Shown here: positions 7,671 to 63,524 of the stretch, in pieces
Numbering within the stretch: the first letter of the stretch is position 1
How the letters are laid out: each line of letters begins with the position of its first letter
Source of the DNA: a virus
DNA length: 64,000 nt
Reading direction: 5' to 3' (one strand)
Virus record (IMG/VR): IMGVR_UViG_3300032308_001681
Coordinates: 30,542-94,541 of that record
Notes under the pieces: generated by a model
Told to the model about the DNA's origin: nothing
The model's input: the letters and a program-made list of their open reading frames with translations, nothing else
Databases searched by the model: none
Position numbers and translations under genes: made by a program

Positions 7671-8383
7671 CCTACCAAATTGGAGAGCTAGTCCCAATAA
7701 AGCGTTACTGGATAGCGCGCAACGGAAACATACCGGAGCGATTCTGGGGCCGCAATTTTGCAGACATCCAAAGAGACACCGGGCAAGAACTGCCGGATGT
7801 CAAGGACTGGGTGTCCGACCTGCTGGCCGGAAAGATTATCAAGAACCCCGGTGGCTTGGGCGAGACTGGTGTGGGAATCCTGCTGGAAGGTGACCCGGGC
7901 CGCGGTAAAACCACCACCGCAGTAACAACCATCATGGAGATTGTCCGACAGTTACCTGACGCTCCGGCCGACATTGCTAAAGTGTTTCACTACGCACCTA
8001 CTGACTGTGGGTTCAACACCCGTGGAGTGTACTACTTGACCATGCCCGACTTCATCAACCAGAAGAAGGCAGTATGGGATGCAGACCCTGATGAGAAGCG
8101 GGAGCTTCAGCGCGAGCTAGACGGGTTCTACGGGCGAGCCAAGGAGGACTGGCTAAACGTCCGCGTGCTTATCCTTGATGACCTTGGCAAGGAATATGGG
8201 TCGGAGTTCAACAAGGTTACCTTCGACGACATTCTCCGCGCTCGATACGACAAGGGAATGCCCACCATCATCACCACCAACAAGCCCTTGGCCCAATGGA
8301 AGAAAGATTATTCGGAGGCAATGCACTCTTTTGCCCGTGAAGCTTTTCGACGCGTTACACTAGAAGGTAAGGACCAACGCTGA
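7667..8383 (+). CDS. DnaC/IstB-like AAA+ helicase loader
   Basis: Walker A GDPGRGKT, Walker B LILDDLGKE, 'PTIITTN'. Confidence 0.85.
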   Translation: MTYQIGELVPIKRYWIARNGNIPERFWGRNFADIQRDTGQELPDVKDWVSDLLAGKIIKNPGGLGETGVGILLEGDPGRGKTTTAVTTIMEIVRQLPDAPADIAKVFHYAPTDCGFNTRGVYYLTMPDFINQKKAVWDADPDEKRELQRELDGFYGRAKEDWLNVRVLILDDLGKEYGSEFNKVTFDDILRARYDKGMPTIITTNKPLAQWKKDYSEAMHSFAREAFRRVTLEGKDQR

Positions 8384-8691
8384 TGAAAGGCTCAACCTCA
8401 ATGCCTGACTGGCGCACTATTCAAATCTTCCTTGAGGATGACGGTGTGTACGAGCTTGAAGCCGACTCAGAAGATTACCAAAAGATGCGCTGCAGTTGCT
8501 CCTTTTACAAAACCGGTAGACGGTGTAAGCACATACGCCACGTTCGTCGCCGTATTGAAGAGAACGACGGAACGTACGCCATTCAGATTCCCTCGACTGT
8601 AAACGACGAAGAAGTCATTGCGGCAATGAAAGACCGCGAACTCTTTCGAAAGTTTTTAATTGACAACGCCAAGATTGAAGTAATCGAGTGA
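8383..8691 (+). CDS. SWIM zinc-finger protein
   Basis: CSC...CKH motif. Confidence 0.7.
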   Translation: MKGSTSMPDWRTIQIFLEDDGVYELEADSEDYQKMRCSCSFYKTGRRCKHIRHVRRRIEENDGTYAIQIPSTVNDEEVIAAMKDRELFRKFLIDNAKIEVIE

Positions 8692-9107
8692 TAAATGGGG
8701 ACATCTCCAATGAGACTCCTCCCCGCCTCATTGTCAATATTGACACCGTAGTAACTTCGGAAATTGCCGAAGAACGTCGGCTTCTTGTTTCAACCAAATT
8801 AACTCGCCGTGTCCTTGGCCTAAACAACCCCGCATTGTCGTTTCTTTGGAATAAGTCAGCTAAGTTTGGGTTGTCCGTAGAACTGGCTGCTTTTGCAACT
8901 GACTTGTGGACACAGGAACACCTCGATAAGCTGATGGCTCGGCTGGATAGCCGTGGGGCTAACCCCTTCAACTATGCAGAACTGTACGACAGTATTGAAG
9001 ATTTCATCGGGGAACTTCCATATCGACCAAATCTAAAGGGTGTCATAGACATTCGAGACCGAGTTGCGCGGTATGGTTCTTGGGGCATTGAACTAGAGAA
9101 CTTGTAA
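8688..9107 (+). CDS. hypothetical protein, degenerate HAD-like fold
   Basis: 'LIVNIDTVV' resembles HAD motif I lacking the first Asp. Confidence 0.4.
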   Translation: MINGDISNETPPRLIVNIDTVVTSEIAEERRLLVSTKLTRRVLGLNNPALSFLWNKSAKFGLSVELAAFATDLWTQEHLDKLMARLDSRGANPFNYAELYDSIEDFIGELPYRPNLKGVIDIRDRVARYGSWGIELENL

Positions 9108-9121
9108 AAAGAGGGAACAAC

Positions 9122-10387
9122 ATGGCACACGATAACGAGTACCGACTAATCAGCAAGGTCATTGCAGACCGGCACATCATACCTGTCATAGAGGCCGGAC
9201 TTAAAGATGACTGGATTGTCGACGACGACCTACGCCGTGTCTGGAAGTTCACTCGCGAGCACTATGCAAAGTACCGCGAAGTTCCTACGTACACTTCTGT
9301 CAAAGATAACTTTCCCAACTTTCAAGCGCTCAATGTCGAGGACACCATTGAGTACCTTATCGACAAGATGGTGGAGTTTCGTCGACGTACCTTGACGCTT
9401 TCCGGCGTCAGTAAGATGGTCGACGAGTTGCAGGGTAACGACCACGAGTCCGCCATTCTGGAGATGTCGAAAACAGTAACGCTCATTAATGAGCAGGGCG
9501 TTATTGGTACACACCACATTGACTTGTCAAAAAACCCTGACGCTCGTTTTGAAGAGTACGAGAGTGTACAGAATCAAACACTGCTTGGCATACCTACCGG
9601 GTTTGCAAAGATTGACGACGCCACTGCCGGGTTGCAGGGCGGTCAGCTGATTACAATCATCGCTCCACCCAAGACTGGTAAGTCACAGATTGCCTTAAAG
9701 ATGGCTATCAACGTACACGAGGCCGGTAAGACTCCCATGTTCCAATCTTTTGAGATGAACAACCACGAGCAGGCTCAACGGCATGACGCAATGCGTGCGC
9801 ATATCTCTCACAAAAATCTTCGTCTAGGAAAGCTTCCCATCGTGGAGGAGCAGCGTTACCGCGACATGCTCAAAGCAATGGCCACGCGACACCCCTTTCA
9901 TCTCGTCGACGCCATCAACGGGTTGACCATTGACTCTTTGGTAGCCAAAGCAGAGCAACTGAAGCCCGACATCCTTTTCGTAGACGGCGTCTACCTGATG
10001 CTTGACCAAGTAACTGGTGAGGCCAACACACCACAGGCTTTGACCAACATCACCCGAGGTCTGAAGCGCGTAGCCCAGCGGTTGGACATTCCTGTGATTA
10101 TTACTACTCAGACTCTGCTGTGGAAGATGAAGGGCGGAAAGGTAACCGCGGACTCCATCGGGTACTCCTCGTCATTTTTCCAAGACTCCGATGTAATTCT
10201 TGGCCTCGAGCCGACTGCGGAAGAAGACGCTATGTCCCGAATCCTCAAGGTAGTCCAGTCTCGAAACTGTGGTCCGGTTGACGCCCTTTTGGTTTGGGAC
10301 TGGGAACGCGGGTGCTTTCACGATGAGGATGAGCGCAATACCTGTAAGTTCTGCGTTCCTTGGTCACCTACCATAGGAACCCCGTGA
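9122..10387 (+). CDS. dnaB: DnaB-like replicative helicase
   Basis: 'GIPTGF..ID..T.GLQGGQL..I.APPKTGKS', 'LFVDG', 'QDSDVIL'. Confidence 0.9.
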   Translation: MAHDNEYRLISKVIADRHIIPVIEAGLKDDWIVDDDLRRVWKFTREHYAKYREVPTYTSVKDNFPNFQALNVEDTIEYLIDKMVEFRRRTLTLSGVSKMVDELQGNDHESAILEMSKTVTLINEQGVIGTHHIDLSKNPDARFEEYESVQNQTLLGIPTGFAKIDDATAGLQGGQLITIIAPPKTGKSQIALKMAINVHEAGKTPMFQSFEMNNHEQAQRHDAMRAHISHKNLRLGKLPIVEEQRYRDMLKAMATRHPFHLVDAINGLTIDSLVAKAEQLKPDILFVDGVYLMLDQVTGEANTPQALTNITRGLKRVAQRLDIPVIITTQTLLWKMKGGKVTADSIGYSSSFFQDSDVILGLEPTAEEDAMSRILKVVQSRNCGPVDALLVWDWERGCFHDEDERNTCKFCVPWSPTIGTP

Positions 10388-11361
10388 GCGTAGACATAGA
10401 GCAAGTTCTAGACGAACTGGGATTTGACTACACCGTTCGCGGTTCGGAGGCCAACGCCCTGTGCCCCATGCACAAAACTCGGACAGGTAAAGATGACAAC
10501 TCACCTTCTTGGTGGATAAACCTAGACAGCGGACAGCACATCTGCTTCTCTTGCCAGTACAAAGGTAACTTGTTCCACCTTATCGCTGACGTAAAACAGT
10601 TCTATCTGCCGTCATGGGGAGACATCGTTGACCACGACATCGCTGCCGCGCACGGTTGGCTGGCCTCTATTGCGGACATTTCTCCGGATAAACTTGCCGT
10701 AGCTTTCCAGCGGATACCCTCCAGAGTAGAGCAGTACGCTCCTCTTCCAGAGATGTCGGAGGCCCGCCTTGCTGTCTTCGGTTCCCCACCCCCGGACAAG
10801 CTAGAAGAACGAAATGTTTCTTGGGAGTCGGCAGCAGCGTATGAAGTTATGTGGGATGCTTCACGAGAAACTTGGGTACTTCCTTTTCGTGACCCAATTA
10901 CTGGACGCCTTCTTGGGTGGCAGGAAAAGGGGACTAAAGAGCGAACGTTTATGAACCGTCCTCCCGGGTTACCTCGTTCAAAAACGTTGTTTGGGTTATC
11001 CCAACTTCGAGACGATGTGGCGTACTTGGTCGAGTCTCCGCTTGATTGCTTACGGTTCCACACCGCGGGGTTCCCCGGGGCCCTTGCTATTTGCGGAGCC
11101 ACAATAAACGAAACCCAGATAAAGCTGATTCGTAACGCCTCTCGTATTATTGTTGCCTTTGATAACCCCAAGGTAGACGCCGCGGGTAAAGCCGCCTCCG
11201 CACAAATCAAAGAGTACGCCTTGAAATACGGACTAAACATGTCGTACTTCAACTACGGAGATACTGGCAAGAAAGACCCGGGAGACATGACCAACGAAGA
11301 GATTGCTTGGGGCGTTGAGAACTCACAGTCCTTTTTAAAGGGAGAGTCCGCCTATGTTTAA
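10384..11361 (+). CDS. dnaG: DNA primase (CHC2 zinc finger + TOPRIM)
   Basis: CPMH...CFSC zinc finger; 'LVESPLD' and 'FDN' TOPRIM motifs; GTG start overlaps helicase stop. Confidence 0.85.
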   Translation: MSVDIEQVLDELGFDYTVRGSEANALCPMHKTRTGKDDNSPSWWINLDSGQHICFSCQYKGNLFHLIADVKQFYLPSWGDIVDHDIAAAHGWLASIADISPDKLAVAFQRIPSRVEQYAPLPEMSEARLAVFGSPPPDKLEERNVSWESAAAYEVMWDASRETWVLPFRDPITGRLLGWQEKGTKERTFMNRPPGLPRSKTLFGLSQLRDDVAYLVESPLDCLRFHTAGFPGALAICGATINETQIKLIRNASRIIVAFDNPKVDAAGKAASAQIKEYALKYGLNMSYFNYGDTGKKDPGDMTNEEIAWGVENSQSFLKGESAYV

Positions 11362-12937
11362 GGGAACGCTAAAGCCGTACCAAGTAGATGCCGTACAAGA
11401 GATGGTTGACAAGAAGAAGATGCTTGTGGCGTATGAGATGGGCCTCGGAAAGACGCCAATGACTATTGCCGCCATAGAGTCTTCTGTACATACATTACCG
11501 TACGATGTGTACAAAACAACTGTTCTGGTACTCTGCTTGGCCAGCCTAAAGTACCAATGGAAGTCTGAAATCGAGAAGTTCAGTGACTCGACTGCGCTTG
11601 TCATTGACGGTACGCCCAAGCAAAGACAGGCGTTCTACGATTCGTATTACGAATACGACTACATCATCATGAACTATGAGCAAGTAGTTAATGACTGGGA
11701 TACCATAAAAACACTTGACATTTCTGCAATTGTGTGCGATGAGGCCACGGCCATCAAAGGGTTTAGAGCCAAGCGAGCTAAGAAGGTAAAAGAGCTCGCC
11801 AAAAAGATTCCAATTAGGTTTGCACTTACAGGAACTCCCATTGAGAATGGCCGTCCTGAAGAAATCTTCTCCATCATGCAATTTGTTGATGCCGATGTTC
11901 TGGGTAGGTTTGACCTCTTTGACAAGACGTTTATTGTACGTAACCACTTTGGCGGAGTTCAGCGTTACCGCAACTTACCCACGCTGCATAAAACGTTGTC
12001 TGAGTCAACCGTTAGGAAATCGCAGAAAGACCCAGACGTAGCACCGTATCTTCCTGACGCAGTGTACCGAGCCCCGCTAATGGTTCCTTTAGACAGAGCC
12101 AGTAAGTTGCTCTACAACTACATTGCCAATGACCTACAGGAGTTGTTGGTGGAGGTTAGCCAGTTGTTTGGTTCTGGGTTTAGTCTTGAACACCACTACG
12201 GTCAGGGTGGAAGTTTTGGCGACCCAGCCAATGAATACCGCGGGAAGATAATGTCACGAATCACCGCTCTTAGGATGCTCTGCTCCAACGCGTCCTTGCT
12301 AACAACCAGTTACGCGGAATTCAGCAAACAAAATGGCAAGGGAAGCGCGTATGTTCATGGCCTAGGCACAGAGGGGTTGTTAGACGGGTTAACTAAATCT
12401 CCTAAACTCGATGCCACCGTCTCATATTTAGCAGAGCACCTAGACATTGACCCTACGTACAAAGCCGTTGTGTTCTCTTCGTACCTTGGCTCCGTTGACC
12501 AGATAGTTAATCGACTAAACGCCAAAGGCTATTCAGCCGTTGCTTACACGGGAGAGATGAATGCCAAAGAAAAAGAAGCAACCAAAGTCAAATTTCAGAC
12601 TGAGGCAGAAGTACGCGTTCTTGTATCTTCGGACGCAGGGGGCTATGGAGTCGACTTGCCGCAGGCCAATCTTTTGGTCAATTACGACCAACCTTGGTCA
12701 GCAGGTCTATCTGTACAACGAAACGGAAGAATCAACCGAACGTCCTCCACTTGGCAAACAATAACTATTCAAGACATTCTCATTCAGGGTTCGATTGAAC
12801 AACGTCAATACGACACGCTTAAGCAGAAAAAGAACGTGGCCGGTGCAGTTATTGACGGTAAGGGTATAAACTCCAAAGGAGGAGTTGACCTGACAGTAGG
12901 CAGCTTGATAGAGTTTCTTAGTATCAAAATGATTTAG
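11354..12937 (+). CDS. SNF2-family helicase
   Basis: 'LKPYQ', 'EMGLGKT', 'CDEA', 'LTGTPIEN', 'GVDL', 'QRNGRINR'. Confidence 0.9.
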   Translation: MFKGTLKPYQVDAVQEMVDKKKMLVAYEMGLGKTPMTIAAIESSVHTLPYDVYKTTVLVLCLASLKYQWKSEIEKFSDSTALVIDGTPKQRQAFYDSYYEYDYIIMNYEQVVNDWDTIKTLDISAIVCDEATAIKGFRAKRAKKVKELAKKIPIRFALTGTPIENGRPEEIFSIMQFVDADVLGRFDLFDKTFIVRNHFGGVQRYRNLPTLHKTLSESTVRKSQKDPDVAPYLPDAVYRAPLMVPLDRASKLLYNYIANDLQELLVEVSQLFGSGFSLEHHYGQGGSFGDPANEYRGKIMSRITALRMLCSNASLLTTSYAEFSKQNGKGSAYVHGLGTEGLLDGLTKSPKLDATVSYLAEHLDIDPTYKAVVFSSYLGSVDQIVNRLNAKGYSAVAYTGEMNAKEKEATKVKFQTEAEVRVLVSSDAGGYGVDLPQANLLVNYDQPWSAGLSVQRNGRINRTSSTWQTITIQDILIQGSIEQRQYDTLKQKKNVAGAVIDGKGINSKGGVDLTVGSLIEFLSIKMI

Positions 12938-16664: not shown

Positions 16665-17113
16665 GCTTAAGAAGAAGACCACCATCTCCTAATTTTTCTT
16701 TGACCGAGATTACTTCCCGCATCCGAGGGTTTATTTTAGATTCCCAAGTTAATGAGGCCGACCACATAAGCGGTCTTCTCGGGTGCCCACCAACTAGCGA
16801 TGAGGTTGCCGACAAAGAATCCGATGAAAGCAATATCCGGATGTCTCGTGTAGAGCACCTTATTCCCATCATGTACATGTACGCAAAGACAATGGCTGAT
16901 GGCGTTGTAGACCACCAGCGCACCCACGCTGAAGCCGAACTCGATGACGAAGACCTCAACGGAATGAACGCTGCTGCTTGGGCAGCAACTCGGAAGGCGT
17001 TTACCCACGTTGCTTTGAATACCCTTATGGGAGCCGTATCTCAAATGGTGGATATGGGATACCTTAACCTCGAACCGGAAAAGAAGAGGAAGTCAAGATG
17101 GAAGAACCGTTAA
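16661..17113 (+). CDS. hypothetical protein
   Basis: GTG overlapping polA stop. Confidence 0.65.
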   Translation: MSLRRRPPSPNFSLTEITSRIRGFILDSQVNEADHISGLLGCPPTSDEVADKESDESNIRMSRVEHLIPIMYMYAKTMADGVVDHQRTHAEAELDDEDLNGMNAAAWAATRKAFTHVALNTLMGAVSQMVDMGYLNLEPEKKRKSRWKNR

Positions 17114-17367
17114 AGAAGACTATGACTTACGAGGAAAAGTTTGACATTGCTATTGCCAAACTAAAAAAGATGTCAGACAAACATCCCGCTATGGTCTGGT
17201 ACTCAGAGGCAAAGTTTTTGTACTCATTGCTACCGGAATTGGTTGCAATGCTTGAGCTGGGTAAGCAGTACAACATCGATAGTTTTACTTTTGAAGAAGA
17301 CATCGCTGCTCATTGGGAGCACATTCAATTTGTCAATAAAGTTGTAGGAGAAAAAATCAGTGAATAA
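17098..17367 (+). CDS. hypothetical protein
   Basis: ORF fills the operon gap. Confidence 0.55.
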   Translation: MEEPLKKTMTYEEKFDIAIAKLKKMSDKHPAMVWYSEAKFLYSLLPELVAMLELGKQYNIDSFTFEEDIAAHWEHIQFVNKVVGEKISE

Positions 17368-17737
17368 CGCAGACTGGTGGGCTAAGAAGTTAGGTCAACA
17401 GGCTCCAACACCACAACCCCGGCAAGACCCAACTCCCCAAGCGCCCATAAGCCAGCAACCCATGGCGCAAATGCCGCAGCTCCAACGACCTTCGAGTGAA
17501 AGGGCCCAAAGTGCAGCACAAACGGCTTCATGTCCTGATTGTGGGTCTGGTAACTACATGTCAGTGGCTAATACTGCTCCCCGTTGTTTTGATTGCGGTT
17601 ACCCTCTGGAGCAGTCTGGCTCTCGTTACGGCTCTCTTGCTGGCGCTCACGTCGAAGGGGCTGCGCGCTCGGCGGCAGGAAACAACCCCGTTAGTAACTG
17701 GAACCCCCAAGGCATCATTGGAAGGATTGGCGAATAA
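17360..17737 (+). CDS. zinc-ribbon protein
   Basis: CPDCGS...CFDCGY. Confidence 0.65.
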   Translation: MNNADWWAKKLGQQAPTPQPRQDPTPQAPISQQPMAQMPQLQRPSSERAQSAAQTASCPDCGSGNYMSVANTAPRCFDCGYPLEQSGSRYGSLAGAHVEGAARSAAGNNPVSNWNPQGIIGRIGE

Positions 17738-23727: not shown

Positions 23728-24519
23728 ATGGCCCGGAACGTTCGTGACCTTCAAGAAGGCGCCTCTGTAGGACGGGATGCCTCGGCTCCAAATGCAGCGC
23801 AGGGAGCCGCTGAGTACGCGCGACAGATAGGCTTGGTACGACCTAACCGGTTTGACAATGTTCTTGTTAACGAACCTCAAGCTCGACGCATTGCCCAAGA
23901 CTATCTTACCGCACCGGAATACGACCCGGCAGCCGAGCCACACTTCCGTGCAATGGCTGAAGAGACAAAACATCAATTTGACTACATGACTCGTCCCCGT
24001 AATCGCGGTGGAATGGGGATGTCGTTTGAAGTGTCTGCTACTGACCCGTACACCAAACCGTCTATTCACCCAGACTCTGAGTACGACGCACCGGACCCCG
24101 CGGCAATGATGCGGGACGTTTCGGAAAACAACCGTATTAAAGTGCTTTCTACCCGTACAACAGGTTCGCATCCGTATTTTACAGACGATGAGAATGACAT
24201 GTTTCGTGGTGTGCACGACGTGTTTGGGCACGCAGCAATAGGTAGAGGGTTTGACGCTCACGGTGAAGAGGCCGCTTTTCGAAGCCACTACGCTATGTAC
24301 GGACCATTGGCGCGTCAAGCCATGGCCGTTGAAACTCGTGGCCAGAATTCAACAAACAATTATGGTGGATTGACCCGAGGTGCGTATGCCCCAAACAAAG
24401 TGATAACATTGCCTTCAACGCAATTAATCACTCCGATTGGTCGTCGTACTGTTTTTGAAACAGCATTTGCGCAGGCCAAGCGGGCACACGAGAGGGCATT
24501 TGGACCAGTAAATGAATAA
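23728..24519 (+). CDS. zincin-like protein (HDxxGH...EE motif)
   Basis: 'ENDMFRGVHDVFGHA...GEEAAF.SH'. Confidence 0.55.
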   Translation: MARNVRDLQEGASVGRDASAPNAAQGAAEYARQIGLVRPNRFDNVLVNEPQARRIAQDYLTAPEYDPAAEPHFRAMAEETKHQFDYMTRPRNRGGMGMSFEVSATDPYTKPSIHPDSEYDAPDPAAMMRDVSENNRIKVLSTRTTGSHPYFTDDENDMFRGVHDVFGHAAIGRGFDAHGEEAAFRSHYAMYGPLARQAMAVETRGQNSTNNYGGLTRGAYAPNKVITLPSTQLITPIGRRTVFETAFAQAKRAHERAFGPVNE

Positions 24520-25777: not shown

Positions 25778-26710
25778 ATGGCCGAGCGGTTTGTTGCGGG
25801 TCGTCAGAAGAACAGCGCTGTGTTACGTATCTCTAACGGAGATATTAGCCAACAGGTTTTGCATAACGCTGGAATTGAAGCAGTTAATTTTGGGAATACC
25901 AGCACGACTAACACCATTCCCCCTAAGCAAGCTGGGCTGTACTTGCTACCCCATGGACGTAGGACTCTAGACCTAAGCCGTCAGTTTGACACCATGATAG
26001 GGAATACAAACGCGCTCATGGATTACGCTTCTTCTCGGGGAAAAACCCGGGAGTGGAGCCAGTTTTATGTGCATGCCCATGATTACGCTCACGAGTTGTC
26101 TCACCGTTACCGCATCTCTCACGAACAGGCTTCGGGAATCATCGCCTCGATGTCTGGTGGTGGTGGTGAATGGGAAAAGAATAAGGCAAATGCAGAGAAG
26201 TTTTTGTCTGCTTACGAAGCAGGGGTTGTTATCAAGCCGTCTCAGCTTAAGGGTGTAGAACGCAGCCGAATTGCAAACGCTCACAGGATTTTGGCTGGTG
26301 AAGACCCTCAAGAAGTTCTTGGAGACTTGAAGGAGGGTAACTTCATGCGAAGCATCCATAACCCTTCTGGTGATTCAATTACTGTAGATACCCACATGCA
26401 CCACGGAATGACCGGTTGGGTGCGTCCGTGGAAGGTTGAGAACAACCCATCCCTTGGGCGAGTCAATACAGGGGGTGGAGGTGCCCCCGGACTTCAGCAT
26501 AAAAATGTATACCACTTTATGGCAGAGGCTGTACGAAACGTAGCAAACGAACACGGCCTTAACCCTAATGAAGCCCAGTCCACCATTTGGTACGCAAAGA
26601 AGACATTGACTAACAATGTTTTAGGCTCACCTCCGCCACACCACCCCAACTTTGAAAGCTATTACCCCAAAGTCCGTCCCGGAGTTCGCTATAGAAAGCC
26701 GACACAGTGA
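25778..26710 (+). CDS. HhH-GPD/DNA-glycosylase-like fold protein (putative)
   Basis: 'FY..AH..A...Q.SGIIASMS...W..N...K..NF...ITVDTH...Y...Q.TIW' pattern. Confidence 0.45.
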   Translation: MAERFVAGRQKNSAVLRISNGDISQQVLHNAGIEAVNFGNTSTTNTIPPKQAGLYLLPHGRRTLDLSRQFDTMIGNTNALMDYASSRGKTREWSQFYVHAHDYAHELSHRYRISHEQASGIIASMSGGGGEWEKNKANAEKFLSAYEAGVVIKPSQLKGVERSRIANAHRILAGEDPQEVLGDLKEGNFMRSIHNPSGDSITVDTHMHHGMTGWVRPWKVENNPSLGRVNTGGGGAPGLQHKNVYHFMAEAVRNVANEHGLNPNEAQSTIWYAKKTLTNNVLGSPPPHHPNFESYYPKVRPGVRYRKPTQ

Positions 26711-27099
26711 CGACTAGATTCGATGGAAACTACGACCAGACTAAGCCGTGGGCAGGTCCGGGCGATAGTGGTGCAAACGCCACTAATCGTTATGCCCCAA
26801 CTTCGGCAGAAAAGTCTTGGTCGTACCTTGGCCCTTGGGCATCCAACGAAGAACGGCTAACTCAGCAGGCTTTGGTGGTTGCAACCCTACCGGGAATTAC
26901 CATTCAAGACATTGTTCGACCTAATCTGCCCCAGTTGCGATTGTTTCCCGACCGTTTTGGATACGGGCCCCGTACTCAACCCGACATTGAAGACGTTGTA
27001 AGTATCGACCGTGTGTACACCGAGCCTCGCGTATCATGGTACTCGGGGGGCGTTGGAAGCTACTCCGGTTCTTCCCGCAACAGTTTGGAAGGAAACTAA
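26707..27099 (+). CDS. hypothetical protein
   Basis: GTGA overlap. Confidence 0.65.
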   Translation: MTTRFDGNYDQTKPWAGPGDSGANATNRYAPTSAEKSWSYLGPWASNEERLTQQALVVATLPGITIQDIVRPNLPQLRLFPDRFGYGPRTQPDIEDVVSIDRVYTEPRVSWYSGGVGSYSGSSRNSLEGN

Positions 27100-27299: not shown

Positions 27300-27676
27300 T
27301 GGAAAAGACTCCGAAACCACCCCTGACTGGTGAGCCTGCCTCGGCACAAACTCAGGAAGAGATTACAACGACCGTACGGTCTGGCAGAGCAGCTGCTCGC
27401 TCTGGCGCAATGACCCCCGCTGAACGTGCCCTAAAAGACCAGACTTTTTTAGGACGTCAATTTCGTAAGACTGTTGCTAAAAACCCAAATGCAATTGAAG
27501 AAGTTCCGGACAAGTACGAGATTCAAGTAAATAAAGAAGACAAGGGTTGGAAAACCGTTAAGGTACACAACAATGAACGCGCCGCGGCGGCACACTACCG
27601 TCGAACTCAAGTTGGTCCGAAAATTTCAAAGAGGATTCTTGTAAACGGCAAAGTTGTTCACGTAGAAAAGGGTTAA
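27299..27676 (+). CDS. hypothetical protein
   Basis: TGATG coupling. Confidence 0.65.
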   Translation: MEKTPKPPLTGEPASAQTQEEITTTVRSGRAAARSGAMTPAERALKDQTFLGRQFRKTVAKNPNAIEEVPDKYEIQVNKEDKGWKTVKVHNNERAAAAHYRRTQVGPKISKRILVNGKVVHVEKG

Positions 27677-27678
27677 GC

Positions 27679-28266
27679 ATGCCATCATCAGACGCTCGAA
27701 AGGCACGTCGTGCCGCCAGTCCACAGGCTGGGCTTCCTAAAGCCACGCCTACAATTGGCGCTGACATCGGAGACACTGATGTCACTCGACGCAAAGTTGT
27801 TGCTACGCAGACCAGTGACCCAGAAAACCCAACAACGTACACGCCTGTTCAGGAAGAAAGTTCTGACCAGCTGTACTACGCAACTCCCGGCGCATCGCCA
27901 GAGGCGGTTACCCTTAGCACGCCTAACCTGCCTCCTCACCACACCGTTATGTCAAACTTAATTAGCGCACTGCATTCCGCAAATTCTGCTCTTGTTTCAG
28001 ACGAGTCTGAGCGTAACGGTGTAGAGACTGCTTTGAATAGGTCACTAGAGCACTTGCACGAATCCGCACGGTTCCACGTAAATGGGCAACGCAATGAGGC
28101 TATTCCGGGAATGGTTGCTGCGGGGGTTGGTGTACGTGCAGCTATACGTACAATACAGAAGGGTGCCGCCGATACTCGCCGTCGTGGTCACCTCGAACGA
28201 GGGTTCCCAACTCCACCCACCAAAATCTTAGACAGCACAATCAAGGCTTACCTAGAAAGCGACTAA
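27679..28266 (+). CDS. hypothetical protein
   Basis: 195-aa ORF. Confidence 0.65.
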   Translation: MPSSDARKARRAASPQAGLPKATPTIGADIGDTDVTRRKVVATQTSDPENPTTYTPVQEESSDQLYYATPGASPEAVTLSTPNLPPHHTVMSNLISALHSANSALVSDESERNGVETALNRSLEHLHESARFHVNGQRNEAIPGMVAAGVGVRAAIRTIQKGAADTRRRGHLERGFPTPPTKILDSTIKAYLESD

Positions 28267-48367: not shown

Positions 48368-48724
48368 ATGAGTAGACGTGAAGAGTTTCGTAAGAGTGCT
48401 CTTTATCATGGGACCACTCATCCCTTTGAGATAGGGGACATCATTGAGCCACAACAACGTCCAGATGGCTTTAGAGAGCCTTTGGCATTTGCTGCTGAAG
48501 ACCCAAGGGCAGCTTCTGTGTTTGCGGCTGCCAAGGCACGTAAGCACGATTTGCCACCTCGCCTGTTTAACGTCGAACCCTTAGAGGATGACGACACGTA
48601 TAAGACAGAGGAGGGTCTTGGGGGCATGATGCTTTCCCGCAGTAAAAAAGGCTTTCGTGTTACAGGAAAAGCCACTCCTACGGAAAAAGACCCTTTGGGC
48701 AATACTTTGAAGTACACGCGATAA
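48368..48724 (+). CDS. Arr-like ADP-ribosyltransferase-fold protein
   Basis: 'LYHGT.HPF..GDIIEP...AFAA...VEP...S.KGFRV'. Confidence 0.7.
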   Translation: MSRREEFRKSALYHGTTHPFEIGDIIEPQQRPDGFREPLAFAAEDPRAASVFAAAKARKHDLPPRLFNVEPLEDDDTYKTEEGLGGMMLSRSKKGFRVTGKATPTEKDPLGNTLKYTR

Positions 48725-48789: not shown

Positions 48790-48999
48790 ATGAACAAGTC
48801 GCTATCTCACAGCCAGATGAGGGCACTCCACCCGGAGTTCTTTAAAGCCCCCGTAGCGGCTCGCCGTCCAACAGCAGACCTCGGTGACTTGGAGAACGCA
48901 CAGATTGTGCGTCGCCCCAAGGCAGCGCCGCCCAAGCAGACGAAAACACAAGTCATTGAACCCGGCACTATCGTGCCGCCTCGCGTCTACGGAGCATAA
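48790..48999 (+). CDS. hypothetical protein
   Basis: Leaderless motif start. Confidence 0.65.
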   Translation: MNKSLSHSQMRALHPEFFKAPVAARRPTADLGDLENAQIVRRPKAAPPKQTKTQVIEPGTIVPPRVYGA

Positions 49000-49706
49000 T
49001 GGCCCAGCCAGAACTTCCTGAAATTGACTGGGAAAAGTACCACGACCCTCCAACGGAGTTGACGTGGTCGCATGTTATGCATGGCAAGCAGTTTGAGCCC
49101 CACATCGCTCCTCTGGTAGAAAAGTTGGGTAGGCGAGTAGCTCACCGTCGTGCCCAACGCGAAATTGCATACGGCTCTTTGGGAGCTTTCGACAGAGAGC
49201 GGCGAGACCCAGATGCCAAACTTTACCGGGCTGCTCGACAGGCTTACTTTGATAACCAGCCGTTGCCTCGTGACGAAGTTGACAAAGAAGCCTTACCGGG
49301 CATGACGACGGCGCGTTGGGGTTACTCGGCCAGTAAAGCCAATGCAGAAAAACGTACTCTAGATAAAATGTCTGAAGTTGTAGCAGCTCGCCCCTTGCCA
49401 GAAAACATCACAATGGAACACACCTTAAGCATGGGCCAGCCGGAACTGACTGTGTACCACCATAACGAAAACGGCGTTAAGGAGGATATTGGCAGTGTTC
49501 ACTGGAACCCCGAAAACGGGTATGTGTATCACATGGCAATGGGAAGCCACCCCCAGTATGTCCCACACATGATTCTCAAAGCACATGAGATGTCCCAACA
49601 AGCTAACGGAACGGGCCCGTCGTTCTCTGACACACTCAGCTCATTCAGCAGGCGACTGCTACGGAATCAGGCCCCGGAGTTTATCCCCAGAAATCCACGA
49701 GACTAG
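48999..49706 (+). CDS. MAQPELP-family protein with GNAT-like domain
   Basis: Paralogous to 49938..51044. Confidence 0.65.
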   Translation: MAQPELPEIDWEKYHDPPTELTWSHVMHGKQFEPHIAPLVEKLGRRVAHRRAQREIAYGSLGAFDRERRDPDAKLYRAARQAYFDNQPLPRDEVDKEALPGMTTARWGYSASKANAEKRTLDKMSEVVAARPLPENITMEHTLSMGQPELTVYHHNENGVKEDIGSVHWNPENGYVYHMAMGSHPQYVPHMILKAHEMSQQANGTGPSFSDTLSSFSRRLLRNQAPEFIPRNPRD

Positions 49707-49937: not shown

Positions 49938-51044
49938 GTGGCTCAGCCAGAACTCCCCGGCATTGACTGGGAAAGCCAGAAGGTACAGGGGCCACAAGAC
50001 AACCCTAATCGTCGACCCCGTGGCAACTTCTACGATAACCTGTATGTAGGACAGCAGTGGCGGGACCACATTAATTCTGAACGCCGACGTGTATTCCTCA
50101 GGCACTTTGGTGTTGGGTACGACACCGGAGACGCCTCTGCAAGGGCTAGCATGCTGGCTGACCCCGATTATCATGCTGTAGAGGATTTAAGCAAAAAGAT
50201 TAACGAGGCATACGGCGTTCCGGGCAGCGCTAGCTTTGACCATGTAAAGAACGCTCCGGTGTATCAGCCACTGTCGACGATGTCCAGCAAGCGTTGGGGC
50301 TACACCAATGACGAAGGAAAAGCTGAACAGCAGGGGCTTGACAAACTTAAAATCGCCTCGCGTCGCGAGATGCCAGCTAACTACAGCATGTACGTGGAAA
50401 AACCAGAACCCGGCGAAGAACCCCACTACGCTATAGGCCTAATGCACTTTGGCGAGAAGGTCGGCCACCTTGGCTGGAGCGGAAAGACCGGTCATGTGTA
50501 TGGTCTTAGCGTTGATGAGCCGCATCGTGCGCTTGTGCCACGGCTGATTTCTAAGGCTCACGAGGTTTCTCACGAAGAAGGCCACACTGGCCCAACCTCG
50601 TCGAATGAACTAAGTGCGTACAGCTACAGGATAATGCGTAAGCATGCGCCAGATTTCATCCCAGAAGACACAATGGTTGAGGGTGAGGATGAGCATATGT
50701 ATGACGATGCTGTCCGCGCTCACCAAGAAGCCGCCCAGAAAGTAAAGACCAACTGGGAATTTGCCAAGCCGCATATTCTTGCCGCAATTGGAAATGACGG
50801 CGTCGCTCTTGACGACATCTCTAGACATGATTCGCGCATAACTAGTTTGCTAACGTCTGTAAACGGTGGACATCTAAATACTGCAGGCAATCACGCCAAC
50901 CGCGTGCGTGCAACCAACGACATGCTGTTTGCTAAACACGCAAGAGCTCTGCCGCGAACTGCACAGAACGCTCTAACTAACTCTGACGAGCCGCTGCGCA
51001 AGTTAACCGAGAGCGACTTCTCTGACGAATTGTATGGTCACTAA
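49938..51044 (+). CDS. MAQPELP-family protein with GNAT-like and helical C-terminal domains
   Basis: Shares MAQPELP.IDWE, RWGY...AE...LDK and P.FIP with 48999. Confidence 0.65.
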   Translation: MAQPELPGIDWESQKVQGPQDNPNRRPRGNFYDNLYVGQQWRDHINSERRRVFLRHFGVGYDTGDASARASMLADPDYHAVEDLSKKINEAYGVPGSASFDHVKNAPVYQPLSTMSSKRWGYTNDEGKAEQQGLDKLKIASRREMPANYSMYVEKPEPGEEPHYAIGLMHFGEKVGHLGWSGKTGHVYGLSVDEPHRALVPRLISKAHEVSHEEGHTGPTSSNELSAYSYRIMRKHAPDFIPEDTMVEGEDEHMYDDAVRAHQEAAQKVKTNWEFAKPHILAAIGNDGVALDDISRHDSRITSLLTSVNGGHLNTAGNHANRVRATNDMLFAKHARALPRTAQNALTNSDEPLRKLTESDFSDELYGH

Positions 51045-51976: not shown

Positions 51977-52174
51977 ATGATTGAATTCAATGACCGTCGT
52001 GAAGACGTGACAAGAGACTGGCGCGTAGGTAAAGTCAAGGAAATCATGGCAAATCAGCGCCAACAGGCCATCTACGACACCGGATACATCACTCCAGTGT
52101 CCGATAAAGCGCTGCAAAAGGCCGAAAAACAGCGCAAAAAGCGCATAGCTAAGGTAAAAAAGAGCCTAAAATGA
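51977..52174 (+). CDS. small basic protein (MIEFNDRR)
   Basis: Leaderless motif start. Confidence 0.65.
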   Translation: MIEFNDRREDVTRDWRVGKVKEIMANQRQQAIYDTGYITPVSDKALQKAEKQRKKRIAKVKKSLK

Positions 52175-52722
52175 CCTATTCAATGGCCGATAAGCCGTAT
52201 GTCGTGCGTAAAGGCACCATTCTTTACCACGGAACGCACGACGAGCACCTTGACGACATCCTTGGAGACGGCGTAGAGCCCTCGGGCGACCGTGTAACGG
52301 CTGGTGCAAGCGGTGTGTGGGTGTCTCCGAGCTTCCACGACGCTGAGTACTACAGCACGGGCCCCGTTGTGCACCTTGAAGCAACAAAAGACCTGCTTAT
52401 TCACCCCACACCGGCAGATAACCTAGCCAAGATTCGGCGAGCAAAGCAGCTTGTCAACGAAGAGGGCGATGAAGGCCGTACGCTTACTCCAGATGAGCTA
52501 AAGGACTACGGTTATGAAGGAATCGACCGCAGCCATGCCGATGACGTTTCGCATGTCATTGGCCAAACAGGCTATGAAGGCCATTGGGACCCGTTTAACG
52601 GTGCCCACGAGATGGCTATCTACAATCCCGAGCACTTGAAGCCAGTTGGCCACACGGATGGAGACATGAAGTTTCATCCCCTCAACCCCGCACTTAATGG
52701 AGCACAGTTTAATCGTGGCTGA
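52171..52722 (+). CDS. ADP-ribosyltransferase-fold protein
   Basis: 'LYHGT....DIL..G..P...GVWVSP....A.YY...GYEGI...HEMAIYNP'. Confidence 0.7.
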   Translation: MTYSMADKPYVVRKGTILYHGTHDEHLDDILGDGVEPSGDRVTAGASGVWVSPSFHDAEYYSTGPVVHLEATKDLLIHPTPADNLAKIRRAKQLVNEEGDEGRTLTPDELKDYGYEGIDRSHADDVSHVIGQTGYEGHWDPFNGAHEMAIYNPEHLKPVGHTDGDMKFHPLNPALNGAQFNRG

Positions 52723-58948: not shown

Positions 58949-58984
58949 AGGAAGCCTCCCTGTTAGTAGACGGGGAGGCTTCCT
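58949..58984 (+). terminator. rho-independent terminator
   Basis: AGGAAGCCTCCC/GGGAGGCTTCCT followed by GCTTTT. Confidence 0.7.
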
Positions 58985-60074: not shown

Positions 60075-61733
60075 ATGCCACTCGGAAAACAGTTTAAGAA
60101 TACCTACTTTGTTAATGAGCAGGGTGAGACAATTTTTCACACCCCAAATGAGGGGGAGACCAATTCCGAAGTACGCCCCATGCCTCATATTGGTTCTCCT
60201 TACATTGGAAGCTCTTATCAAGGCATGCTATTTGACCCGCACTGGGGGACTGGGTCGAGTAAAGACCCGTCTATTTCTGATGACGAACGCCATGCAGCTA
60301 TTGACCGAGTTCTTGGAACGGGTGACGTCGAGGCGTTTCGCCGTGTAAACGGCCCTCTGAAACCCACAAATATCTTTCGACACAAAACTTCCGGTGAAGA
60401 GGTTACTCCAGACCAGATGACTCCGGAAGATAGAGCAAACACATCTAAAAATTACAGGCAATTGAGCGAGCGGGCCCCTCGCGTTAGTGTGGACCGAGCA
60501 ACCATGCAGATTGAAGGTGTTCGAAAAGCCGCTATCGAAAGTGGCATTCCACACCAAGAATGGGCCAACCTAAAACCAGTAGGTGTAGAGGTTCGCCCCC
60601 CACAAAGAACTTGGGGGGGCCACTACGACACTAGCTCTGGAAACATAACATTAAATGAACTAACCAAGTCCGAGTGGGTTGCGCCTAAAGAAAAGCCCGC
60701 GCTACCTCCCGCTAAGCGGGGCGCACCAATTCCTAACCCCAAGTGGCGGGCTCAAACCGAGGCGTTAGGCGAGGAGCACGGATACGGGCACAACCGACTC
60801 TTCACCGAAGGCTTCTCGGGATGGATGGAGGACAGCGGTAGTTGGTACAGCTCTCGCAATGACCCGGAAAATATGCCACGTACCCCGCAGCAAGCAGTAG
60901 CCCCGACGTACTTTAACGCCAAAGGAGAGCCGTACTCCCCCGACAAAGACACGGACGTGCACTATTTACCCGGGGGGCACACCGCAAACATCTTTCCGGG
61001 CAAGGGGGCAAGCACCAAAGACTATATTGCTACTCCTATAAAAACAGCTGTAGAAAACGAATACAGTGGACGAAACAAAACGCTTTGGTACCACTTGCGT
61101 CACGAAGCGGTCCCAGACCCAACTGCTGAAGTAGCTGAACCTAAACAACCTAAATCTAAACGAGTAATTGTTTCGTCCGGAGTTAAACCCGACACGTTAA
61201 CTCATGAGTTGGGGCACTCAATAGACCCAAATATTCGGGACATGACAATGTCTTACCCCGACCCGATTCAAGAGGGCGCGGCCGACGGTTACGAGGATAG
61301 GCATCATAAATACCGTGATGCTTATGAAGAAGCGCTTGACCCGTCACGTCCATCGCGCGCGAAAGAGCTGCAGTCAGAGGGAGGCTACGGCGCAAACTAC
61401 TTCAAAACTAGAACTGGTGGCCGTGTGGCCTCCGCTGCGTACATTGCCGCCCGTGCGCATGTTGCCATGGGTGAAAACAACATGAATACCATTCCAAACA
61501 GGAAAGACTTGTGGAATGGGCAAACCGACGGAATGTACGCCGACGATGCTGCCAAAAAACGAATGACAGTATTGGCACTAGGCCACTTGTACCACCACCA
61601 TGAGCATGTTCGCCAAGCTTTGGCATCAACCGGCTATGAGGCCGAAGGCAAAGCGGCGCACAAAGCGTGGGCTGCGGCATTGACTGATGGTGCTAGGGAC
61701 ACGCAACCGCCCACCCAACCCACTCTGTTTTAA
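60075..61733 (+). CDS. large protein with HExxH metallopeptidase motif
   Basis: 'LTHELGH.ID...QEGAAD'. Confidence 0.65.
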   Translation: MPLGKQFKNTYFVNEQGETIFHTPNEGETNSEVRPMPHIGSPYIGSSYQGMLFDPHWGTGSSKDPSISDDERHAAIDRVLGTGDVEAFRRVNGPLKPTNIFRHKTSGEEVTPDQMTPEDRANTSKNYRQLSERAPRVSVDRATMQIEGVRKAAIESGIPHQEWANLKPVGVEVRPPQRTWGGHYDTSSGNITLNELTKSEWVAPKEKPALPPAKRGAPIPNPKWRAQTEALGEEHGYGHNRLFTEGFSGWMEDSGSWYSSRNDPENMPRTPQQAVAPTYFNAKGEPYSPDKDTDVHYLPGGHTANIFPGKGASTKDYIATPIKTAVENEYSGRNKTLWYHLRHEAVPDPTAEVAEPKQPKSKRVIVSSGVKPDTLTHELGHSIDPNIRDMTMSYPDPIQEGAADGYEDRHHKYRDAYEEALDPSRPSRAKELQSEGGYGANYFKTRTGGRVASAAYIAARAHVAMGENNMNTIPNRKDLWNGQTDGMYADDAAKKRMTVLALGHLYHHHEHVRQALASTGYEAEGKAAHKAWAAALTDGARDTQPPTQPTLF

Positions 61734-61745
61734 TAGGGAACTACC

Positions 61746-61862
61746 ATGGCACGTAAATCCAAAGGCTCTGGTGTACGCAACGACAACCGCAATTGCGGTA
61801 AAGGGTTTAAGAAGCGTCCCAAGATTTTTGACCCTATTAAGCGCCGTCTTGTGAGGGTGTAA
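61746..61862 (+). CDS. 38-aa highly basic protein (not in ORF track)
   Basis: MARKSKGSGVRNDNRNCGKGFKKRPKIFDPIKRRLVRV; TAATG coupling. Confidence 0.6.
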   Translation: MARKSKGSGVRNDNRNCGKGFKKRPKIFDPIKRRLVRV

Positions 61863-62197
61863 TGGGTCGCAATAACGCCGACTTTGAAGAGTCAGCCCTC
61901 TATCACGGGACGGTACACCCCTTTAACCTAGGGGATGTAGTAATTCCCAAGAATTACTCTCACGCTTTTGCTACAGACTCTAAACACGAAGCGCGTGCTT
62001 ATGCCGACTCCGAGGCGGAGATTGAAACGAAGTTACGGGGAGAAACCGTTCCCGCACGAGTCTTTACCGTAGAACCCGTGGACCAAGAAGAGAACCTTAT
62101 CGTGAACCGCGTAAAATACCCTTTGGCTAAATCTCGCAAAACAAAGATATTTAAAAGTCAAAAAGGCTTCAAAATAACGGGAGAGCTTAATGGGTAG
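61862..62197 (+). CDS. MGRNN-tagged Arr-like ADP-ribosyltransferase
   Basis: MGRNNADF + 'LYHGTVHPF..GDVV.P...AFAT...VEP...S.KGFKI'. Confidence 0.75.
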   Translation: MGRNNADFEESALYHGTVHPFNLGDVVIPKNYSHAFATDSKHEARAYADSEAEIETKLRGETVPARVFTVEPVDQEENLIVNRVKYPLAKSRKTKIFKSQKGFKITGELNG

Positions 62198-62438
62198 AAA
62201 TAACGGGGACTTTTATCACGGTAGTTCTCACCCGTTTAAAAAAGGTGACATCATTACTCCACAGGGAGAGCACACTCACGCTTTTGCTACCGACCAAAAA
62301 TGGTATGCCAGAGGATTTGGAGACGTGTACGCAGTAGAGCCTGTAGAAAGTGAGGGCGTTGAGCACTACGACACAGTAGTGGATGCCAAAATGCTTCGCG
62401 CTAGTAAGGGCTTCAGAGTAAAGAGGCGCATACAGTAA
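62190..62438 (+). CDS. MGRNN-tagged Arr-like ADP-ribosyltransferase
   Basis: MGRNNGDF + 'YHGSSHPF..GDII.P...AFAT...VEP...KGFRV'. Confidence 0.75.
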   Translation: MGRNNGDFYHGSSHPFKKGDIITPQGEHTHAFATDQKWYARGFGDVYAVEPVESEGVEHYDTVVDAKMLRASKGFRVKRRIQ

Positions 62439-62791
62439 TGGGCAGGAACAACGCAGACTTTCACGGAGTTACCTTTCGCTATTCGCGTTTCAACGGGGAC
62501 CACTTTGTCTCCGCCAAAGAGCCCGGAGAAGGGCAGGGTGTCGGTTACCTGCACTGGTCTAATCAGGGTGGAAAGATTAACGACATCTATGTTGACCCTG
62601 ACTGGCGGCGTAAAGGTATTGCGACTGGGATGTTTGACTTCGCGCGAGTAATGGCAGAATCATCGCCCCACATTCCGCGCCCTAGGCACTCTGGCGTTCG
62701 TACTGAAGCAGGCGATGCTTGGTCCAAAACTACAAAGGGGTATTACCTACCCACAACAATCACTCCAGATAATGAGGAACAACGTGGGTAG
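62438..62791 (+). CDS. MGRNN-tagged GNAT acetyltransferase
   Basis: MGRNNADF + 'IYVDPDWRRKGIAT'. Confidence 0.8.
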   Translation: MGRNNADFHGVTFRYSRFNGDHFVSAKEPGEGQGVGYLHWSNQGGKINDIYVDPDWRRKGIATGMFDFARVMAESSPHIPRPRHSGVRTEAGDAWSKTTKGYYLPTTITPDNEEQRG

Positions 62792-63050
62792 AAACAACAA
62801 CGATTTTGCCAAAGGGCTGTTTCACGGCACAGACGCTGACCTCAACCCCGGTGACCTTGTAGAACCACGTACTGACGGAGTTGCGTGGGCTTCCACCAAC
62901 CGTGAAGTCGCCGCTAGCTACGGCTCTAAGCTTTATCACGTAGAGCCTTCCGAGGACATTCAACGCCACTCGGGGGCGGCCAAAGAGTTTGGTATCCACA
63001 ACTCGCGCATCGGCTTCAAGGTAAGGGGTCTGGCTGATGGGCCGCAATAA
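62784..63050 (+). CDS. MGRNN-tagged Arr-like ADP-ribosyltransferase
   Basis: GTG start (M)GRNNNDF + 'LFHGTDADLNPGDLVEP'. Confidence 0.75.
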   Translation: MGRNNNDFAKGLFHGTDADLNPGDLVEPRTDGVAWASTNREVAASYGSKLYHVEPSEDIQRHSGAAKEFGIHNSRIGFKVRGLADGPQ

Positions 63051-63330
63051 AGCAGACTTCAACGGAATCTCATACACCTTTACGGATACGCACCCAACCT
63101 CCCATGAGCTCGAGGCCTTTGACCCAGCTGTGGGAGATGTTGTTGGGTACATGCGCTGGAATCGGCAGCATGGCCGAGTTGAAGACATCTCGGTAGACCC
63201 AGAGCACCGAGGCAAGGGAATTGCCACAGGACTATGGAACCACGCTAAAACCTTGGGCGTTACGGCACCACAGCACAGTAGTGTACGTACAAAAAGCGGC
63301 CAAGCGTGGGCGGAAAAAGTCGGCAAATAG
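63037..63330 (+). CDS. MGRN-tagged GNAT acetyltransferase
   Basis: MGRNKADF + 'ISVDPEHRGKGIAT'. Confidence 0.8.
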   Translation: MGRNKADFNGISYTFTDTHPTSHELEAFDPAVGDVVGYMRWNRQHGRVEDISVDPEHRGKGIATGLWNHAKTLGVTAPQHSSVRTKSGQAWAEKVGK

Positions 63331-63445: not shown

Positions 63446-63518
63446 TCCTCGATAGCTCAATTGGCAGAGCAGCGAGCTGTTAACTCGCAGGTTCGTGGTT
63501 CGAGTCCACGTCGGGGAG
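63446..63518 (+). tRNA. tRNA-Asn (GTT), CCA not encoded
   Basis: Acceptor TCCTCGA/TCGGGGA, D arm GCTCaattggcaGAGC, anticodon loop CTGTTAA, T arm CGTGG-TTCGAGT-CCACG. Confidence 0.95.
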
Positions 63519-63524
63519 CAAAAA

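Follow-up and report, generated by a model that had tools for sequence, protein, structure and literature searches.

MGRNNxDF, a shared N-terminal peptide that looks like an undescribed address label on small accessory proteins of an uncultured phage clade

Why should five consecutive viral genes, encoding two kinds of enzyme, begin with the same eight residues? The question is raised by a 64,000-nucleotide stretch of viral DNA (the window), which is the final 64 kb of the 94,541-bp (94.5 kb) IMG/VR record IMGVR_UViG_3300032308_001681, here called G000. Five adjoining plus-strand open reading frames (ORFs) at 61862-63330, all present as an initial annotation of the window had noted them, start with M/V-G-R-N-[NK]-x-D-F, hereafter the tag. 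The two ends of G000 have 123 bp in common by sequence comparison, a repeat that the assembly of a circular or permuted genome probably left behind. The five tagged genes, in window coordinates and with predicted products that include ADP-ribosyltransferases (ARTs) and GNAT acetyltransferases, are as follows.

61862..62197 (tag 61862-61885), + strand: tagged, predicted Arr-type ADP-ribosyltransferase, 111 aa, MGRNNADF (Pfam, AlphaFold2 (AF2) model, alignment)
62190..62438 (tag 62190-62213), + strand: tagged, predicted minimal Arr-like ART, 82 aa, MGRNNGDF (alignment)
62438..62791 (tag 62438-62461), + strand: tagged, predicted mini-GNAT acetyltransferase, 117 aa, MGRNNADF (Pfam, fold search, homologues)
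62784..63050 (tag 62784-62807), + strand: tagged, predicted Arr-like ART, 88 aa, GTG start, (V)GRNNNDF (alignment, homologue L044)
63037..63330 (tag 63037-63060), + strand: tagged, predicted mini-GNAT, 97 aa, MGRNKADF (Pfam)

Homologue L044 has ATG at the tag, which supports GTG as the start codon of the fourth gene. A degenerate DNA pattern for the tag gave four matches where 0.01 were expected, and none of 100 shuffles gave four. In a six-frame peptide scan of the window these five were the only copies of the tag, and the whole 94.5-kb record held no further one.

The initial annotation described the products as five unrelated enzymes. There are in fact two folds, three mutually related Arr-like ARTs and two mutually related GNATs, and it is these two folds that are unrelated to each other. 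The first ART scored 20.6 bits (E=5e-4) against the Pfam family Arr-ms (Arr, PF12120), below its cut-off of 25 bits, and a tagged relative (L037:7929) scored 36 bits, above it. The AF2 model of the first ART, with a mean predicted local confidence (pLDDT) of 80, matched the rifampin ART 2HW2 in a fold search (probability 1.0, TM score 0.64). In alignment the tagged ARTs conserve HG[TS] (H15-G16 in the first) and V-E-P; in the second ART, F8 of the tag directly adjoins the YHG motif. From these alignments and the model, the first, second and fourth ORFs are predicted to be Arr-type ADP-ribosyltransferases. The third and fifth are predicted to be truncated, minimal GNATs: the third scored 30.4 bits against Acetyltransf_7 (cut-off 27) and the fifth 33.8 bits against Acetyltransf_1 (cut-off 20.7), their alignment keeps RRKGIATG, an instance of the acetyl-CoA motif R-x-x-G-x-A/G, and a fold search with the model of the third returned GNATs exclusively as top matches. 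The tag was found in 10 of 10 homologues of this third protein, as MGRNNADF in nine and MPRNNADF in one.

Is the tag a property of these two enzyme families? The search across viruses that the initial annotation had called for, in which IMG/VR was scanned with a pattern neutral to synonymous codons, returned 72 loci, far more tagged proteins than the five. Nearly all translated matches were real gene starts with a ribosome-binding site. Removal of duplicates left 70 distinct tagged proteins, which fell into 37 groups without BLAST similarity outside the tag, or about 36 families once L049, a chance match, is set aside. Recognisable cargo comprises GNATs, Arr-type ARTs, ParB-like proteins (ParB_N) and a DnaJ-type zinc finger; the rest is mostly hydrophilic, hypervariable unassigned proteins of 45-100 aa. 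All tagged proteins are single-domain and span 42-192 aa (median 66 aa, grand average of hydropathy -1.0, isoelectric points mixed). ARTs and GNATs thus do carry the tag, as had been proposed, but a signal specific to them is too narrow a description, since about 36 unrelated families bear it, and most of these proteins are tiny and non-enzymatic. A longer consensus reads MGRNNxDFxxG, with G11 in about half of the proteins.

The position of the tag is strictly N-terminal. In 1.1 Mb of DNA from the clade described below, read in six frames, 64 of 64 copies of GRNNxDF directly follow a start codon. A profile of the tag alone, run against 1.84 billion representative proteins, gave 10 significant matches, all beginning at residue 1 of proteins of 46-120 aa, too few for listing partner domains. 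In 596 Gb of cellular genomes the same DNA pattern was matched at least 120 times, about the number estimated for chance; among 80 of these, prophages included, no tag stood at an ORF start, all being internal or chance matches. A literature search for MGRNN found nothing relevant and no mention of the motif.

The tag is also confined to one group of phages. The coat protein of G000 shares about 61% identity with its counterparts in Streptomyces phages BRock, LuckySocke and Alone3, and G000 is collinear with BRock from the terminase to a TGT-like gene. Because of this collinearity and of a WhiB-like gene in G000, an actinobacterial host is likely. All near-complete tagged contigs have this major capsid (coat) protein, at 70-98% identity, and 59 of 60 tagged loci have ORFs in common with five complete genomes, each of which holds one to five clear copies of the tag and some degenerate ones. 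In BRock, LuckySocke and BCD7 the tag was not found, even at two mismatches, and a de novo search of BRock gave no other shared N-terminal motif. Given this restriction and the untagged cultured relatives, the tag is an innovation of a single uncultured clade with genomes of about 95 kb.

Near-tags were seen besides the clear copies. In G000 a 61-aa ORF at 792-977 of the record, outside the window and, if the contig junction is crossed, about 1.4 kb beyond the array, starts with MGANNEDF. Relatives have MGRSNSDF on a GNAT (G015), MGRTNGEF and MGRNTAAF (G019), and VPRNNDDF on a 276-aa protein (G030). A 263-aa protein at 23728-24519 (+ strand; phrog_3170, function unknown) starts with MARNVRDLQEG, sharing M1, R3, N4, D7 and G11 with the tag; this start may be a degenerate tag, and the protein is not conserved in the other four complete genomes. 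Two further plus-strand ORFs, 48999-49706 (235 aa) and 49938-51044 (368 aa), form a paralogous pair with the common start MAQPELP[EG]IDWE and are probably plain paralogues rather than bearers of a second tag.

What is conserved is the peptide. The initial annotation had argued for selection on the peptide from differing codons, and this was borne out: synonymous codons vary both within the array and across families. When each family is represented once, all synonymous codons occur, with GGA/T/G/C for Gly, CGT, CGC, AGA and AGG for Arg and GAC and GAT for Asp, and codon 6 is free at all three bases. Among the five tags of the array, DNA identity read by eye is about 70-80%. The two Asn codons are used unequally across families, N4 being AAT in 31 of 37 and N5 being AAC in 26 of 37, an asymmetry suggestive of shared descent or of some memory at the nucleotide level. 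One candidate cause, that the TAA embedded in AAT-AAY serves as the stop codon of the upstream gene, was rejected, as this arrangement occurs in only 1 of 71 cases.

The tag likewise proved independent of the fold that follows it. In both AF2 models (ART and GNAT) it has pLDDT <50 and no secondary structure, and in the alignments of both enzyme families it is nevertheless the most conserved segment. The spacing from F8 to the catalytic HG of the ARTs ranges from 0 to 17 residues. Moreover, homologues exist without it or with a decayed form of it, including two ART paralogues in the window:

48368..48724, + strand: ART paralogue, 118 aa, with a degenerate or decayed tag (MSRREEF-RKSALYHGT) (ORF list, translation)
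52171..52722, + strand: Arr-like ART paralogue without the tag, 183 aa (ART-profile hmmsearch, E=7e-5)

Another homologue is gp73 of Mycobacterium phage Blubba (L227), a 504-aa protein in which a ParB-like domain is fused with a GNAT domain. The ParB-like domain is 32% identical to the tagged ParB of the relative G015, and the GNAT, an internal domain homologous to the tagged mini-GNATs, begins to match at profile position 22. In G015, ParB and GNAT are adjoining separate genes, each tagged, and gp73 links such neighbouring tagged genes in the manner of a Rosetta stone. ART domains that we had guessed by eye in the C-terminal half of gp73 received no support from the profile. Predicted disorder, variable spacing, untagged paralogues and the mycobacteriophage homologue that aligns only from position 22 together rule out the tag as a component of the fold.

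How, then, do so many unrelated proteins come to share it? Comparison of G000 with G015, whose coat proteins are 98% identical, places the borders of exchange at the tag. The upstream border lies just past a leader gene:

61746..61862, + strand: 38-aa basic leader ORF (MARKSKGSG...RRLVRV) (sequence)

The TAA stop of this ORF and the ATG start of the first tagged gene overlap as TAATG, and a similar leader-like ORF precedes the array in L073. Leader DNA is 94% identical between G000 and G015 up to the end of the first tag; homology is lost at the last codon of that tag (61886) and is back at 63037, precisely where the ATG of the fifth gene stands. The interval holds ART-ART-GNAT-ART in G000 and ParB-GNAT in G015. 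A second slot, which follows a homologue of BRock gp47, was compared pairwise at 11 loci with differing bodies: upstream homology mostly ends 24-38 nt past the ATG, and downstream homology often restarts within about 10 nt of the stop. With homology lost where the tag ends and regained at the stop codon, the tagged bodies behave as exchangeable cassettes.

The gp47 homologue itself is a conserved protein of about 120 aa (26707-27099, + strand, and 17 IMG/VR loci) for which Pfam, PHROG and Atlas gave no family. Throughout one subclade the next gene, joined to it by a TAATG overlap, is a small, hypervariable tagged ORF; the gene after it in G000 is untagged. It was considered as a clue to the tag and dropped, having no family assignment and a BRock homologue that sits in an untagged context.

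These borders raise the possibility that the element acts mainly as nucleic acid, as a site of translational coupling or restart or as a cassette junction, with the peptide as a by-product. Tagged genes start in a TAATG overlap in 49 of 71 cases and in ATGGGTAG in 7 of 71 (the 62190..62438 gene has the 8-nt start/stop overlap ATGGGTAG), compared with roughly 15-30% for such overlaps among genes genome-wide, a rough estimate from junction counts. The breakpoints at the tag end and the N4/N5 codon asymmetry would also fit. However, third positions vary, Arg switches between CGY and AGR and codon 6 is free, while the flanking amino acids are invariant; tags only about 70-80% identical in DNA would be a poor substrate for homologous exchange; and a coupling site has no need of an invariant D7 and F8. 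We regard a primarily nucleic-acid role as very improbable.

On this evidence MGRNNxDF(xxG) is probably a peptide-level address or docking motif that acts at a free N-terminus and is read by one common partner. As for the partner, the likeliest single mechanism is virion loading, which we put forward tentatively and by analogy; we infer both the readout by a partner and the identification of that partner with the capsid. Under virion loading, the tag would be read by the procapsid during assembly, through its scaffold, its portal or the inner surface of its coat. Tagged proteins would be packed into the virion, enter the host with the DNA and there exert their first effects, for which ADP-ribosylation, acetylation, ParB-type nuclease activity and inhibition by small proteins are candidates. 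Unlike in T4, loading would proceed without a maturation protease.

Several observations favour virion loading. The cargo proteins are small, and a protein that is fused in Blubba is split here with both parts tagged. An ART (T4 Alt) and a ParB (P1 DdrB) are among the proteins for which injection is known or has been proposed, so the cargo types match (PMC5512222). N-terminal capsid-targeting peptides occur on diverse defence proteins of T4 (PMC3012670), and the N30 peptide of P1 DarB is a precedent for N-terminal packaging (PMC9024508).

The genomic setting of the array bears on the time of its expression. Three features lie near it:

58949-58984, + strand: terminator-like hairpin with a 16-bp stem, after M23 peptidase and holin-like genes
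60075-61733, + strand: 552-aa ORF immediately 5' of the array, with a HELGH (HExxH) motif (ORF, motif)
63446..63519, + strand: tRNA-Asn(GTT), the 3' border of the cassette slot (ARAGORN)

A second hairpin with a T-run was read by eye 3' of the tRNA, where the terminator scanner gave no flag. No promoter was detected between the terminator and this second hairpin. The two hairpins appear to delimit one unit, which opens with the ribonucleotide reductase beta-subunit gene (RNR-beta), continues through the 552-aa and leader ORFs to the tagged array and closes with tRNA-Asn; the array appears to be co-transcribed with RNR-beta. The 552-aa ORF had no Pfam or PHROG match; weak Atlas leads connect it to LPD, ArdC and M78 metallopeptidase families, typical of polyvalent proteins, and it is not present in the close relative G015. 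The tRNA is the only one in G000. It lies downstream of tagged enzyme arrays at six loci or genomes (G000, G015, L044, L059, L022, L013), about 30-120 nt from the stop in L044 and L059; L030 was also named among loci with this tRNA past a tagged enzyme array. The tag contains Asn-Asn, the residue of this tRNA, which we note in passing.

A number of findings weigh against virion loading. The position of the array downstream of RNR-beta, past the strong terminator 58949-58984 and with no promoter of its own detected, suggests early or middle rather than late expression, and non-structural genes surround the slot of the other subclade. G000 gave no match to S78 or ClpP prohead proteases, with both controls positive, and none to S77, whose control matched nowhere; the interval between portal and coat genes holds the scaffold gene alone. 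No cleavage motif (L/I-x-E) follows the tag, positions 9-12 being variable with no conserved Glu. The portal (7963-9696 of G000), scaffold (9748-10593) and coat (10626-11759) are shared with BRock, which is untagged; a gene for a 100-aa protein (7657-7959) adjoins the portal gene, and eight other core genes have no counterpart in BRock. Finally, clustering of neighbours over four or more contexts yielded syntenic genes only and no gene that travels with the tag. The packaging or co-ejection proposed in the initial annotation thus goes beyond these data: there is neither a T4-like cleavage motif after the tag nor a prohead protease match, and docking on a shared partner fits equally well.

Such docking could also take place in the infected cell, where the proteins would act after synthesis, unpackaged, on a shared intracellular partner. 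That partner might be a hub of the host, such as RNA polymerase, the ribosome or the DNA machinery; it might be a chaperone or regulator of the phage, or an N-terminus-modifying enzyme. The hallmarks of a short linear motif, namely disorder, N-terminal position only and selection on the peptide, fit an intracellular partner just as well, and both the probable co-transcription with RNR-beta and the non-structural surroundings of the slot in the other subclade speak for it. On the other hand, no enzyme or other gene is consistently found with tagged genes in four or more contexts, a by-eye comparison showed no likeness to known clamp, single-stranded DNA-binding protein (SSB) or ClpX motifs, and it is hard to explain why 36 unrelated proteins, many of only 45-60 aa, should all need the same host site. 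We consider docking in the infected cell somewhat unlikely.

A free N-terminus would equally be required if the tag were a degradation or turnover signal, by which a host or phage protease limits the lifetime of potentially toxic accessory proteins; ART, GNAT and ParB enzymes in the cargo are potentially toxic. In one subclade, a gene for a protein of about 188 aa starting MMTTLVAIQGDGW lies 2.5-4 kb from the tagged slot, and by eye this protein resembles a proteasome/HslV-type Ntn hydrolase. It was observed at L008:1578-2147 and 8 other loci, in G011 (17075-17641) and in G030 (27597-28055). However, the gene is absent from G000, G015 and G019, which are tagged, and many of the cargo proteins look like harmless small binders. 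To our knowledge the tag is also unlike described N-degrons, which counts against a turnover signal. This explanation is improbable in our view, and what probability remains falls to a tag without present function.

What would follow if the tag loads capsids? That it is a capsid-loading signal needing no maturation protease is possible by analogy, if rather doubtful. If true, the full set of injected proteins of an uncultured actinophage clade would be readable from sequence, a portable handle of 8-12 residues would be available for loading foreign proteins into such capsids, and new effectors could be recruited merely by recombination at the tag. Address peptides with an experimentally shown common fate are limited to a few model phages, notably T4 and P1. 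Whatever its reader, the tag marks a sequence-recognisable, fast-evolving accessory set of minimal ARTs, GNATs, ParB-like proteins and dozens of small proteins of unknown function, and this set therefore supplies candidates for host takeover or anti-defence at once. The identity of the reader can be addressed concretely, using one peptide, one reporter and three structural proteins. On present evidence, the tag, found on dozens of small and unrelated accessory proteins, resembles an address label not described before.

Comparable systems are known inside and outside phages. Encapsulin cargo-loading peptides and the encapsulation peptides of bacterial microcompartments are short, terminal, carried by unrelated enzymes and bind the inner surface of the shell, and encapsulin shells have the HK97 fold, as phage capsids do. 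Their peptides differ in being usually C-terminal or amphipathic helices, and we recognised no similarity to the tag. Polyvalent proteins and MuF-fused toxins (Iyer et al. 2017) resemble the clade's cargo in their ART, ParB-like and possibly metallopeptidase domains and are proposed to be effectors delivered with DNA. They differ in linking several domains in one chain to a folded head-associated domain, whereas the clade has separate small tagged proteins; a chain that combines at least two disparate effector domains, as polyvalent proteins do, was seen only in the fused mycobacteriophage homologue.

The Dar antirestriction system of P1 likewise uses an N-terminal peptide, that of DarB, to direct anti-defence cargo, and P1 also has the ParB-domain protein DdrB (PMC5512222). 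The DarB peptide suffices for entry into the capsid (PMC9024508). In contrast to the tag, it is a signal of 10-30 residues on one giant protein rather than a motif of dozens of families, and the two have no sequence similarity.

The closest likeness is to the capsid-targeting sequence (CTS) of T4, an N-terminal peptide of about 10 residues on internal proteins that include anti-defence proteins (PMC3012670). In the T4 loci for IPI, IPII, IPIII and the hypervariable internal proteins, as in the clade, a short N-terminal peptide is the sole common feature of small, diverse and fast-changing proteins; in both, bodies vary among relatives while the tag stays, and T4, too, injects an ART (Alt). Differences are equally clear. 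The tag is dissimilar to MKTYQEFIAE and does not end in a prohead-protease site (L/I-x-E), neither a T4-type nor any other prohead protease was found, and the clade has a BRock-like capsid lineage with an SPP1-type portal and a scaffold. With about 36 unrelated tagged families and cassette borders at the tag, it presents the genomic pattern expected of a T4-type CTS. With neither sequence similarity nor a cleavage site, and with a different capsid lineage, the tag falls outside the T4 CTS family, although in its genomic behaviour it is CTS-like.

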